A stretch of 61,088 nt of DNA, the filler included, from Sphacelaria rigidula (lineage: Eukaryota), in NCBI GenBank assembly GCA_964200075.2. It is 8 parts of 8 records of this genome, joined end to end, with 100 filler letters (N's around TTAATTAATTAA, not from the genome) between each part and the next. Parts side by side here need not be neighbours in the genome. Positions count along the whole stretch, not along the records: positions 53,541 to 61,088 come from CAXNAA020014390.1; 7 more parts are not named here. One strand, given 5' to 3'. The notes under the pieces are model-generated. The model saw only the letters and a program-made list of their open reading frames with translations, made no database searches and had not been told where the DNA came from. Position numbers and translations under genes: made by a program. This document shows, piece after piece, positions 51,561 through 58,267 of the stretch. Each line of letters opens with the position of its first letter. Position 1 is the first letter of the stretch.

Positions 51561-52979
51561 TGTGTTATTTATTCCTCGCGCAAGTACAGTATTCCTTCTT
51601 CTTCCGTCTCAGCGCACGCTTCGCCCCGTAGCTTATAGTGGCAACCTCAATCGGACCTTGGGATGGGATTCGGCACGAGGCATTGGCGACGCACATTGGT
51701 TTTACTATATGCCGATCTGTCTACTGCAGGATGCCTCAACATCAATTGATGCGATGTGCAGGGGACACAGCCAGCAACCGCCAGGGCAAGACACACAGTA
51801 CAGAACAGTACAGTAGTACAGTGCTGCTTTTGACTAACGTACACCATGTACTGTGTTTTTCCAATGGGCACAATGTGCCAGAAACGTCGCATCAGTGAAG
51901 CACGCGCCCACGCACACACACAGAGATTCCGAAAAAAAAAGAGAACCACGCACAGCGAATACATCCCATCTCATACCTCCAACACGGTTGCTGGCTTTCC
52001 ATAGCAGGTCAGGACTAGCTCATCTGAACAAGCAACGCTTGACAATTTTTGCGGGAAGGGAGTATCGACCAGGACAGAAAAAGACGGCCAGTACATCCGC
52101 CCGTGTTTCCTCGCATATTAATCTGAGGAGAAGAAGAAACCAAAGAGGTTGTTCCACGAATAACACAAACCGCGAGGAATCGAGACTAAGCTCACCTAGC
52201 TAGTTCTTCCAGTTCCACAGTGCACAGAAGTAGAACGAACCGCGATGTTCCTGAGCCCGACGGCAGCACAGTCAACTCAGGTACACTTCAGGGCGTACGA
52301 AGTGATTGGGGGATGATGTAACACGTTCCGGGCTGTTCTGAGTGCAGGGCAAAAATCTCATATTTTTCCTGGAAAAGGGGCCAATTTCCATCACCGGGCC
52401 GAACCGGACCGAATATCTATCTAGAGCAGGCCAGGGCTACGAGTATGTGCGTGCGGGTTTTTTCCATCATCATAACCGTAACTGGGGCAGTTTCATCTAC
52501 TTCTTCATCACATAGACAATACCCGGCGGAGGGCAGCGCTTCGCTATTCCAGGACAAAGTCTCGCCCGTTCGATTCATGTTTTATTATAGAAGACAAAAA
52601 CATATCCCTACTGGGAATTAGGTGAAGGGGCCGAATCCGAGGTGCCTTTTTCGACATGAATGAGTGGAGGTTTTAGCACATCGATCGACGGGTCCTGACC
52701 AATTCATTCGAATTTAGACGAACTTGTAGCCTAATATTACCCCGCTGTTGTGTCCGCTGTTGCAATATATTTGAGACCTCATCAAGTATCGAAAAATTAC
52801 TGCATGGCACACACGACTATATAAAGAAAACATATTCAGCGTATTGATGATGACTTCCATGAGGAAGTTGGGCTCATGGCCTTTCCAGGGATAGGAAAGT
52901 AGTCGTCCTCAGCGGTGGTTCTTGTTGTTGTTCTTGTTCTTGTTGCAAGGGGCCCCACATCGGAATGTCACGGCACCAG

Positions 52980-53030
<51 letters not shown>

Positions 53031-54241
53031 ACCCCTCCCCCGCGCACCTCCTGCNNNNNNNNNNGTTGTGTTGTTTTGTTTTGTTTTCTTTTTGGGCTCC
53101 ACCGCGCCTCCCTCTCGTGGTTTCGGGACCCCCCCCCCCCCCCCCCCCCCCACCTTCCCCCCTAAGGGATCGTTATACATGGGTAGTGCACTTGTTTCTG
53201 TTCCGATTGTCCGATACTAAAATATATATGAAAAATAATAATAATAAAAATCGTCTGTGAGCCACAGACGGTCCAGTTGGATATATATATATATATACAA
53301 AATGTATACATAGGTAGTGACTTGTTTCTGTTCCGATTTTGTCTCATACTAAAATACATATGAAAACAATCCCAGCAAGGGGCCCTACAGACTGGAAAAC
53401 AGTGTGCACCCCCACAATTTACAGAAAACCACATTCTGGGNNNNNNNNNNNNNNNNNNNNNNNNNNNNNNNNNNNNNNNNNNNNTTAATTAATTAANNNN
53501 NNNNNNNNNNNNNNNNNNNNNNNNNNNNNNNNNNNNNNNNGTGATGTGTCAAATTGATCGTGTAGGTGATGGCTTACGTTGAAGCCACCGCTTCGCAGCG
53601 GGCGCATCACTCCTCGAACTGTGGCGATGTCAAAATCGACGGGAAAGTCTATTGCTTCGGGTCTGACTCTGAATCTGAAACTACGTTCTGAATCTCACGA
53701 ATATAGTGTTAAATCCGCCAAGGCCCGTATTCCGCCAATAATCCGCGATGAAAGGTTCAACAGGACAGTTTTCAGATGATGTTTTCAGTCTATCAGAAGA
53801 GGCCTGAGATCGGGACGTGCTGGAGCCGGTACTGGCGTCATACGTCGACCCGTTCGAGTAATCGAAGTAGTTGGCGTAGGATCTGACCACCACCCGATGT
53901 GTGGGTTTAGGTATTGCAGATCAAACGAGAGAGTGTCGACACACCCGTGTTGACGAGGGCGTTGAGCTTATGATGCGTGGAAAGACCGCATTTCTTCCCT
54001 GCATCGTGAACGATTTTCCACACCTGTCGGTCTAGTCAATACCTGAAAATACCGCGCTCTTGACTTCCACCCCAACAAAAACCCTAACCAGGTCAAGAAC
54101 GCACGCGGTCATCCCACACACCACAGAGCCCCTGCGTTGTGTCTGGCGAGCACAGAGATAGCCGCCGTATTTCATTCTCCTTTAGGTATTGATTGACCCA
54201 CAGAGAGCGATCATCTCGTGGGAGTCAACCGGGTAGACAGG

Positions 54242-56872
54242 ATGTTGTCGACGAAGAGGCTGTACGGCTGCGTGACTGGGATCATCTTCTGCTTGGCTCT
54301 TTTCGCACGTTCAGCTGCAGCAGGTGAGTTGCGCACCTTTTGTCGCGAATTTCACGGTCTTTGGCCGACCGCTGATGTAGGCGGGAGGAAGGTGCTGCGA
54401 TCGGAAACGGCACACATGAGAGTCGGATGTTTGACAGATCTTGGACGTCGATCCCGGCGCTTGTTTGGCGTCCAACTGTGCGGCGTTGACTCCGCTGACG
54501 CCTTAGGTGTGCTCTTATGGTGTGCCATGTGCTCCTGGCGCGTGCATGGCCGGGGGTTTTCAGCGTCCGAACTCGACTCATGTTTTTGTCTCATCACCGC
54601 CAGGACCAACGGCTGAAACGGTGGCACTGCGGAAAGAAGAGAGACCGACAGGCTTGGCTCCGGCGTCTTTTGCCGGAGGCTCCGTCACACGAGCATCAGG
54701 GCAAGGTGAGCCCTCGGGAGGGTGAGGAGTTTTGATGGAAAACTCCAGTCATTACCGTGTTGTGGACGAATATCGATGGTGCAGTCATGCACCTGGTGTG
54801 GTCAAGAAGCTCCTCGACGTGGGTGCCGCCGCTGACGAGGGCCGCCGGTATCGTGTCCCTTGTCGAAGTCGCCCGCTCCGCCGTCGTTGTTACACCGCAC
54901 CTCCAGGTGAAAAATATGCCAGGAGCCTTCGACAAAAACACCGCAGGAGGGGCAGGGGCAGGAGAAGAAGGAGAAGAGGGAGAAGAGGGAGAAGGAGACG
55001 ACGTCGTGGGCGCAGAGGGCGGAGATTCCGTGGTGAGTGCACCGCTGACCGGGCCAATATCCCGTGTACCACGCCGTAGCCAGCGATGAAGACAGCAGTG
55101 CGATTCGATTTTCGTGAACGGCGCGTGTAGAGACGAGACGAGCGCCCAACCTGTTTCGAAGATGCTGCCGAACAAGAGCGGTAGGTCGACGATGGTGTAC
55201 CATATTTGTCCCAGTGGTACCACACACCAGAATGCCTGGGGTTCGTGCCTTGACCCGCGTCCGTTGCTCGCACTTCGACCCGGCACCATGGTCGTGCTGC
55301 TGCGTGTGTGGGAACTCTATCCACGTCGCGCTTGCAGGAAAGATCAAGTTGACTCCGGCACCGACGGCGGCCCCGACCGCCACGCCGGCACCAACCGCCA
55401 CGCCAGCACCGACAGCGCCGCCCGCGCCGACTGCGACGCCGCAGCCAACGCCAGCCCCGGTGGAAAGAGGCTTCATCATTCTTCCTCTCCCTGGTGAGAG
55501 ATGAAGAGTGTCGAAACGAGTGTTTGTTCCACGGTGATGCCACGTGTCGTGACGGGTAGCTTGTAATTTGCAGGGGTGCGGGAGAAAAGATGCCACGTCA
55601 CCCTCGATCGGTGATCCTTCCTCGGTGATCCCTTCCGCAAGCTGCTTCCGTGTCCAGTAACTCCTTTCGGCCCGGTCGGTCAGGGGTGCATTCGTTCAGC
55701 CATCGCGCAGTCGGGCGTACCGCGTGCTCGTTTTTCTCGGCTGACCTGGTGAAAACCCTCGCTCGGTTTGGGTCGACCGTGTTGTCATCGTCGCATGTCC
55801 ATACGCACGGTAGGAATCCCCGGGCTCGCGATTGGTGGCGGGATAATTCAAATCGTAGATCTGGTAGTCGGCCGGACCATTGTTATCCTCCTAGTGGACG
55901 CGGCTGGAATCCCGGTGGGACAGGTCACCGTCGTGGTGATTTTGAATCGGAGGCTAACGGAAACGCCCGAAGGAGAGCAAGCCGCAATTTCAGCGGAGAG
56001 TGAGGCGTCCCGCGGTCTTCAGCGGGGAGGGGTTATCAATGTGAGCAACGTAGTGCCCACCTCGGGCTCATCACGCGCCGAGAGTACCTCGATGTCGTGT
56101 TCCGTTCCACTGGAGCATGTACTGTGGCCCTCGGGCATGGGTTGAGGCCATGTTGGCGGGGAGGCGTCTACAGCGTCTGGTACTTGCGTCGCCGATGTCG
56201 TTGTCGTCGTGGACGTTTGCGCATCGCATGGTGGGCCGCGGTGCCGACTCTTCTCGTAGAAACCTTGATAGGGAAGACCCAGTACGCCCCCGAGCCCGAA
56301 GAGCAGGGCACGGGTCGGGTTGTGCTTGTTCCCGCGCATCGTTGTCAACGATTGGGGACAGGCGTTGCCGTCGAATTGCCTTGTCCTGATGACCTATGAT
56401 GGGGTGGACACTGTTTTGAACTAGCCGAGCACACCCGACGAGGCAGTGATGAGACAAGATGATACTATCCCCGACTGCTTCCCGACCACTCACGACTTGC
56501 CGTCGACCCAAATGTCGCTGTTGTTTTGTCTACGGATCCCAGGTGAGGGTGGATATCGTGAGCGTGACGATCTACCGCCGAGGTTTGCGGGTCGCCGGAT
56601 CAAACCCCTTCTTGGTCGCGACCATCAATGGCCAGGTCGTCCTTCGCACCCCGCCCAGGTTTGGCACTTTCACTCCCGTGTGGATCCCGTCGCAGAGTTT
56701 CCCCGTCTTTTGCAGGGGCACCACGCGCGTCTGTGAGGTACAGGTGCTCCTCTTCAACGCGGACCCTCTCGCGACTCCGGCGCCAACCCCGGTGCCGACG
56801 CCAGTGCCGACCCCGGTGCCGACCCCGGTGCCGACTTCGATGCCGAGCCCGGGGCCGCCCCTGTTCCCTTGA
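54242..56872 (+). CDS. Secreted basic protein, 340 aa: signal peptide, Arg/Gly tract, Pro/Thr/Ala repeats, C2-like domain; exons 54242-54323, 54604-54705, 54907-55032, 55338-55493, 55814-56040, 56543-56872
   Basis: All five introns are GTGAG...AG with compatible phases (1,1,1,1,0), total 1023 nt. MLSTKRLYGCVTGIIFCLALFARSAAA signal; the last exon VRVDIVSV..GSNPFLVATINGQVVLRTPPRFGTFTPVW..QSF..VQVLLFNAD follows the C2 pattern (SDPYV..KT....TLNPVW.E.F..L.V.V.D.D). Confidence 0.85.
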
Positions 56873-57755: not shown

Positions 57756-57968
57756 GTGTAATGCGTGGGAGGACCGCGTGCTCAGAAGACCGCATCGGAA
57801 TTTGAACATCTGTATGGTAAGGGTTAGGGTTAATGTTGGTGTTGACGTTAGGGTCAGGGTCGTGGTCCCTTCAGGGACTGGCCCGATTGGTTTTGAAAAT
57901 CGTCGATCCTGGGGTGTTTCGGACTACGTAGCGGTCCTCTACGCACGCGGTCCTCTCACGCATTACAC
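57756..57968. mobile_element. MITE family A, best-preserved copy
   Basis: 26-bp TIRs GTGTAATGCGTGGGAGGACCGCGTGC / GCACGCGGTCCTCTCACGCATTACAC; internal GGGTTAGGGTTA..GTTAGGGTCAGGGT. Confidence 0.9.
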
Positions 57969-58267
57969 CCTGTCCAAGCAAAAAAGTCACAGCCTTGTTG
58001 CTGTACTGCTGGCGGCCGCGGCTCTTCTGTCTGCACAGTTCTCCGCAACCCCATCATTGCTGTTCGCGGCTGCGGGGTTTCTGCTTGTACAGTATTTCGC
58101 ACCACCGCAGGCTCCCTGCGTTCGCCAGTGCGGATCTGTCTACCGTGGGAATCGCTCATAACTTGTTACGGATATGCTCGTAGTGCCCAACGGATGCACT
58201 CGCACTGTCTAGTACCCACTCGCCCCTGCTGCGTGCACGTTTCAGTTTAATACTGGATCTAAACGAT

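Follow-up and report, generated by a model that had tools for sequence, protein, structure and literature searches.

A probable circularly permuted C2 domain in an apparently secreted, arginine-rich protein family of the brown alga Sphacelaria rigidula

C2 domains are described in passages of PMC8507603 as occurring in two topologies, type I and type II, that are related by circular permutation. In diatoms, an RXL motif closes the pro-region that follows the signal peptide and also lies between repeats; the protease that removes it is unknown, as set out in parts of PMC5525289 and PMC4557024. Alginate and sulfated fucans are given in part of PMC12223506 as the main wall polyanions of brown algae, at the origin of which, according to part of bioRxiv 10.1101/2024.02.19.579948, numerous novel secreted proteins arose and domains were rearranged more often; the term 'C2 domain' is counted zero times in that text, supplements aside. 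Described here is a six-exon gene of Sphacelaria rigidula (assembly GCA_964200075.2) located at positions 54242 to 56872 of a 61,088-nucleotide stretch of joined contigs, hereafter the window, and encoding a protein of 340 residues. As judged from its sequences, the gene is a member of a real family of about fifteen that is lineage-restricted, predicted to be secreted and seemingly undescribed, the chief surprise being a permuted C2 domain with a readable exon history. The best reading, at a probability of roughly 55%, is that the product is a polycationic protein of the wall or of adhesion, secreted, matured by a protease and built on a repurposed C2 scaffold, for which a polyanion-binding role in the wall or in adhesion has about even odds. 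The literature search, judged by titles and the beginnings of abstracts and with most subscription papers and the supplements of brown algal genome and secretome studies outside its scope, returned no match for the architecture or for a permuted or secreted lipid-type C2 of such kind, in agreement with an earlier note on this DNA in which the architecture was not recognised.

The C2-derived domain and its exon history

The first part of exon 6 (56543..56764, plus strand) supplies five of the eight strands of a type II C2 domain, those of its N-terminal part (1-5), and the first part of exon 5 (55814..55947, plus strand), which is Val/Ile/Gly-rich and highly hydrophobic, supplies the remaining three, those of its C-terminal half (6-8). 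Exon 6 alone matched Pfam PF00168 with 13.8 bits (E 0.07) over profile positions 21-71 of 104 and did not reach the gathering cut-off of 22 bits. P0001, a database gene model that its source lists as an unnamed protein of Sphacelaria rigidula and that corresponds to spliced exons 4-6 of the paralog L013, scored 12.2 bits, also under the cut-off. The MATH family was absent from the Pfam scans of the exons and of P0001, and homology indicated C2.

The best matches to exon 6 in the genome outside the family were repeats of a tandem multi-C2 gene on contigs G000:C387 (L024-L026) and G000:C6028 (L028/L033), the ends of which, including the 5' end, were not found. On C387 approximately 15 two-exon repeats have intact calcium ligands and long linkers, each repeat consisting of an exon for the N-half followed by an exon for the C-half plus linker. 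The N-half exons pass the Pfam C2 profile (45-48 bits, positions 3-75), open in phase 0 and end with the first base of a glycine codon inside calcium loop 3. A phase-1 donor was found at 14 N-half ends in a scan that covered phase-1 donors only, and a matching acceptor at 14 of 15 C-half starts. Exon 5 of the window gene begins in phase 1 within a glycine codon and ends in phase 0, like the tandem C-half.

Comparison of exon 6 with the tandem N-half exon by hhalign gave a probability of 98.4 (E 4e-15), which bears out the C2 origin proposed in the earlier note. Exon 5 was colinear with the tandem C-half but weakly aligned (E 0.005, probability 7%, 51 columns), and a wrong-half control gave E 0.09 over 10 columns. 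When 4296 six-frame segments (191 kb, with L029-L032, L034, L035 and L037-L041 as background contigs) were ranked with the exon-5 profile, C-half segments were the top 12, 11 of them in register. Since both exons match exon types of the tandem gene, with the same phases and linker, but stand in the order C-half then N-half, the alignments and the structure model indicate that the domain is highly likely a circular permutant of C2 whose chain opens in calcium loop 3. A tree of the N-halves did not resolve the donor gene.

The predicted structure of P0001 was an eight-stranded antiparallel sandwich of moderate confidence in which the exon-5 part formed three strands. C2 structures dominated the lists from fold searches, none of them strongly scored, and Foldseek with exon 6 alone gave no match at E ≤0.001, most rows being C2 domains. 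Neither the profile of the exon-6 family nor that of the tandem C-half gave anything useful in sequence searches of the PDB. In the ESM Atlas, C2 clusters came up at 0.81, which is a lead only, and the Arg/stalk part had no usable match. With strands 6-8 ahead of 1-5, the order is neither type I nor type II. Since the Pfam score lies under the cut-off, the strand order departs from both topologies and the calcium ligands are mostly lost, the domain was classed as a C2-derived permutant. The C2-like fold that the earlier note had placed in exon 6 is thus retained as to derivation; exon 6 alone is incomplete, and the domain spans exons 5 and 6 in permuted order.

Two unnamed Logan proteins, P0003 and P0011, are exon-6-like and have no close locus in G000 (maximum 53% for P0003). 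Both end in Gly-Glu at the position of the tandem-gene donor, a hint that the ancestral site holds an intron and that intermediate forms exist elsewhere.

The tandem-gene repeats retain their Asp ligands; in the window protein one of the five Asp ligands of calcium loops 1 and 3 is left, and two core Asp positions are each Asn in 14 of 15 members, so that the loss of calcium-binding Asp read earlier from the motifs SNPF and FNAD, both present in the protein, is upheld. The two Cys of exon 6 (56711-56713 and 56732-56734, plus strand) are invariant in 15 of 15 members, occur also in P0003 and P0011, and probably form a disulfide, fitting an oxidising compartment. The C-half of exon 5 is depleted of charge (8% vs 28%) and raised in mean hydropathy (1.53 vs -0.09), which suggests a buried self-association or surface-binding face. 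The same hydrophobicity leaves open a membrane-embedded segment and to that extent weighs against the reading of a wall or adhesive protein. A link between plasma membrane and wall could be provided either by an embedded exon 5 or by calcium-independent binding of the domain to anionic lipids, and it would be consistent with 19-residue segments, beginning at residues 148-182, whose hydropathy exceeds 1.6 (peak 2.21), with the eight Arg of the N-half and with the binding of anionic lipids by calcium-independent C2 domains described in part of PMC8507603. Nevertheless, the exon-5 segment alternates in a strand-like manner, aligns to C2 strands 6-8 and was modelled as strands. Anionic lipids are mostly on the cytosolic face, and the Pro/Thr stalks are attached at the new domain ends, where calcium and lipid normally bind, the canonical lipid-binding tip being severed. 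Since the chain is opened in the lipid/calcium loop and carries stalks there, the cross-linking to membranes through C2 suggested in the earlier note is doubtful, and a membrane tether of either kind is improbable.

Secretory exons, arginine frame and RxL sites

The gene is on contig G000:C14390, the final 7548 bases of the window beyond a run of N. Poly-C runs and N gaps at window positions 52960-53560 mark a contig join; the window seemingly strings together unrelated contigs of similar length, and bases before 53541 are not genuine context. The six exons join via GT-AG into the open frame of 340 residues, with splicing read from the genomic sequence, and the model made in the earlier note stands, the paralogs and the exon 4/5/6 junctions of P0001 being in agreement with it. 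Exon lengths and phases (1,1,1,1,0) are retained across the family. The window sequence by itself permits alternative exon-5 ends; these were rejected on the recurrence in paralogs of a 227/224/221-nt exon with identical phases. P0001 and a second database model, P0030 (paralog L027), are probably derived from the same genome and therefore represent a second annotation rather than experimental proof.

Exon 1 (54242..54323, plus strand, phase-1 donor) encodes a predicted signal peptide (residues 1-27), recognised by eye from a basic N-end, a hydrophobic core and AAA ahead of the predicted cut. The highest 11-residue hydropathy is 2.69, dN/dS is approximately 0.5, and the exon is 82 nt long in 11 of 12 models and 85 nt in L020. 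Plastid signals of stramenopiles have an aromatic residue at +1 to the signal cut. Since Gly occupies this position here, the peptide is a poor fit to such a signal. Neither a transmembrane segment nor a KDEL/HDEL end was found at the exon 6 tail by sequence and hydropathy. Secretion is very probable on these grounds, and the extracellular, probably processed product proposed earlier is supported. Exon 2 (54604..54705, plus strand, phase 1-1; 99-111 nt in paralogs) encodes a low-complexity pro-region. Exon 4 (55338..55493, plus strand, phase 1-1) encodes a Pro/Thr stalk with 16 Pro and 10 Thr in 52 residues and is present in 16 of 16 family loci. The second part of exon 5 (55948..56040, plus strand, phase-0 donor) corresponds to the inter-repeat linker, with a pLDDT below 50 in the P0001 model. 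The second part of exon 6 (56765..56872, plus strand) encodes a Pro/Thr/Val tail and the stop; tail length and repeat unit differ widely between paralogs. Both Pro/Thr blocks named in the earlier note were located, as were its RRL and RGLQ motifs.

Exon 3 (54907..55032, plus strand, phase 1-1) encodes an RxL site and an Arg/Gly polycation, with 25 Arg in 41 residues and no match in Pfam. The 23 Arg in 30 residues counted in the earlier note were found again, although the 30-mer begins three residues past RSLR rather than directly after it. Across eight ungapped pairs, which are not mutually independent, pN/pS was 0.18 for the Arg frame, against 1.89 for the acidic and 1.54 for the third frame, and 75 of 136 differences were on third positions of the Arg frame. 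The ratio of 0.18 indicates that exon 3 is under selection for Arg. The acidic and third frames were rejected on pN/pS values above 1 and on a stop in the acidic frame of L016, and P0030 has exon 3 joined to the Pro/Thr exon in the Arg frame. The gene and its Arg frame, the latter as read in the earlier note, are almost certainly real on this sequence evidence.

RxL occurs in the window protein only at residues 67, 201, 222 and 244. Site 1 (RSLR, 54921..54932, plus strand, residues 67-70) is a candidate pro-peptide cleavage site by comparison with diatom RXL precursors. It is RxL in 14 of 14 family loci with an Arg exon, the fourth residue being Arg in 11 and Lys in three. RRL (55948-55956, residue 201) and RGLQ (56011-56022, residue 222), both on the plus strand, bound an acidic linker; of 15 aligned members, all 15 have RRL and 14 have R[GS]LQ. 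Cleavage at RxL is, by analogy with diatoms, somewhat probable. No [ED][ED][KR] or dEER motif was found within 40 residues past RSLR (search rule per part of PMC3174193), and this span contains no acidic residue. On sequence, the motif is RxL rather than RxLR-dEER. An RxLR-type effector translocated into foreign cells, or a protamine-like nuclear protein, would account for the signal peptide, the RSLR at residue 67 and the Arg-rich block, but the nearest database relative is brown algal rather than oomycete, the signal exon is conserved, which opposes a nuclear location, and the fourth Arg is not conserved, being replaced by Lys in three of 14 family loci and by Ser in three of three sister genes described below. 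Since dEER is lacking, the fourth residue varies and RxL recurs in the linker, the link to RxLR effectors drawn earlier is unsupported, and an effector or nuclear role is very improbable.

The two RxL sites in the linker bear also on how the halves may close. Pairing of halves between molecules by strand complementation, giving a polymerised fibre with Arg arms, would be consistent with these sites, with the mostly stripped surface charge of the C-half and with a separate-chain prediction that gave weak pairing support (0.49 vs 0.00 for the best control). However, the linker of approximately 30 residues formerly joined successive repeats and suffices for closure within one chain, as the single-chain model folds, and such a fibre is considered distinctly unlikely. 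A more elaborate version, considered unlikely, is a third natural C2 topology that operates as a pro-protein, in which an RXL protease drops the linker and the halves pair intermolecularly, so that alginate and fucans are taken up into a polycationic fibre or coacervate. If true, a cytosolic calcium sensor would have given rise to an underwater glue, or a cross-linker of the wall, that assembles by itself, and the diatom RXL maturation route would be operating in brown algal walls.

Family members, sister genes and selection

When the genome was searched with exon 6, 24 of 37 candidates were matches, comprising 16 family loci and eight repeats of the two multi-C2 genes. The related loci, alike in exon order and intron phases, number at least 16, although the true gene number may be lower since alleles or recent copies may account for some close pairs. 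The signal exon was found at 13 family loci, with two sister genes matching as well, and the Arg exon at 14; L013 and L018 lie near contig ends, without first exons in the DNA examined. Internal stops were absent from 12 of 12 family models, a set that includes L023 minus exon 2 and leaves out four partial loci. Exons 4 and 5 (dN/dS 0.38-0.53) are under stronger selection than exon 6, where it is weak (0.76-0.78). Database searches found two of the 16 loci as annotated proteins, indicating that the family has seemingly been missed for the most part by annotation. P0001 was the sole close database relative of exon 6 and the only match of the exon-5 profile among proteins retrieved. Homolog searches returned P0001 alone or, in one that scored the best 8000 candidates, P0001 and P0030, which is weak evidence for absence elsewhere. 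Among 1.84 billion representatives scanned there were 37 matches, namely members of the family, proteins with one or several C2 domains and two single-exon relatives that are unnamed.

Several loci depart from the common form. Long seven-residue Pro-Gly-Asn repeats replace or extend the Pro/Thr tail of exon 6 in L010-L014, L017 and L018. A frame change inside the Pro/Thr tail of L020 and a non-consensus exon 3 donor (GTTAGT) in L021 may each reflect a decaying copy or an assembly error. The most divergent member, L027 (G000:C26123), keeps the Arg exon, stalk and N-half, whereas neither a C-half exon nor an RRL linker could be recognised in it; the P0030 model has a short, different exon there. 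A dispersed repeat and a degenerate telomere-like run occupy window positions 57780-57980, with similar translated words in L027 and L054.

Three sister genes, L052:1200-2626, L053:1273-2722 and L054 (G000:C7148, minus strand), have the family's signal exon, at 60-65% identity in L052 and L053. In all three, RGL or RAL is followed by Ser and then by a Lys/Gly block, which in L052 and L053 precedes an Asp/His/Tyr repeat block and the stop. No C2 halves were detected in the sister-gene DNA examined. By analogy, L052 and L053 would be secreted two-block polyampholytes reminiscent of silaffin/silacidin logic, and the Tyr of the Asp/His/Tyr block could serve in cross-linking.

The expansion of the family, its variable tails and the relaxed selection on exon 6 would also fit a precursor of a cationic defence or antifouling peptide, in which the Arg/Gly block is freed onto microbial membranes and the permuted C2 acts as carrier or microbe-binding head. 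Oligo-Arg peptides traverse or perturb membranes. Arguing in the other direction, no RxL site follows the Arg block to detach the stalk, and the block itself is strongly conserved rather than diversifying and nearly without hydrophobic residues. Moreover, the coupling of basic and acidic Asp/His/Tyr blocks in the sister genes fits a structural polyampholyte. A defence peptide is thus unlikely. Antimicrobial release, adhesion and wall binding, all raised in the earlier note, are inferred uses.

Proposed origin and working, and comparison with known systems

The family may have originated when a C-half exon, linker and N-half exon were excised out of register from a tandem multi-C2 gene, the putative donor. 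The two-exon piece would then have come to lie downstream of a reusable cassette made up of the signal, pro-region and RxL-basic exons, and each of its new ends would carry a Pro/Thr stalk. The predicted halves would close as one eight-stranded sandwich, open in calcium-binding loop 3 and without a calcium site. In the proposed working as a wall or adhesive protein, the signal peptide would direct the product into the secretory path, where a cut by an RXL-type protease at site 1 would unmask the Arg block with a net charge of approximately +25. Probable cuts at RRL and RGLQ would release the acidic linker and leave a two-chain domain, and could allow halves to pair between molecules. The Arg block would bind alginate and sulfated fucans, with the Pro/Thr stalk as spacer between it and the calcium-blind hydrophobic sandwich, which would self-associate or adhere to surfaces and thereby cross-link the wall or attachment mucilage.

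Little is known about the proteins that give brown algal walls structure and adhesion. The family with its selected poly-Arg block and the sister proteins with Lys and Asp blocks would be concrete candidates for cross-linkers of alginate and fucans. The family appears to be a further C2 permutant beyond the two described topologies, in which a path of duplication then truncation leading to permutation may be read within one genome from intron positions common to both genes, and in which a calcium/lipid module has been turned into a likely extracellular scaffold.

The nearest known systems compared include the tail domain of Kinesin-3 KLP-6, labelled MATH (PDB 7wrg, PMC9314371). The C2 domain (PF00168) of the tandem gene on C387 and C6028 shares with the family the homology of both halves, two intron positions with their phases and the inter-repeat linker; the family differs in its reversed halves, the single Asp ligand left of five, the invariant Cys pair, the signal peptide and the sub-cut-off Pfam score. 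Oomycete RxLR effectors likewise have a signal peptide followed by an RxLR motif, here RSLR, and RxLR is present in 11 of 14 family members, the signal peptide of the window protein being the one recognised by eye; they are unlike the family in that the latter lacks dEER, varies in the fourth Arg, repeats RxL internally and has five introns in an algal gene. Protamines and oligo-Arg cell-penetrating peptides resemble the family in an Arg-rich block (23 of 30 residues), whereas here the secretory signal exon is conserved and the block is inside a modular protein of 340 residues. Diatom wall precursors (silaffin Sil1p, cingulins, frustulins, silacidins and silicanin-1), as described in parts of PMC4557024 and PMC5525289, share a signal peptide, a short pro-region ending in RXL, internal RXL and low-complexity modules of charge blocks; the family differs from them in an Arg/Gly block in place of Lys/Ser repeats, in having no silica wall and in its folded C2-derived core. 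From this likeness of layout, and with no claim of membership or homology, we infer that the family may work like the diatom RXL precursors, making it a candidate for an RXL protease route in common with diatoms.
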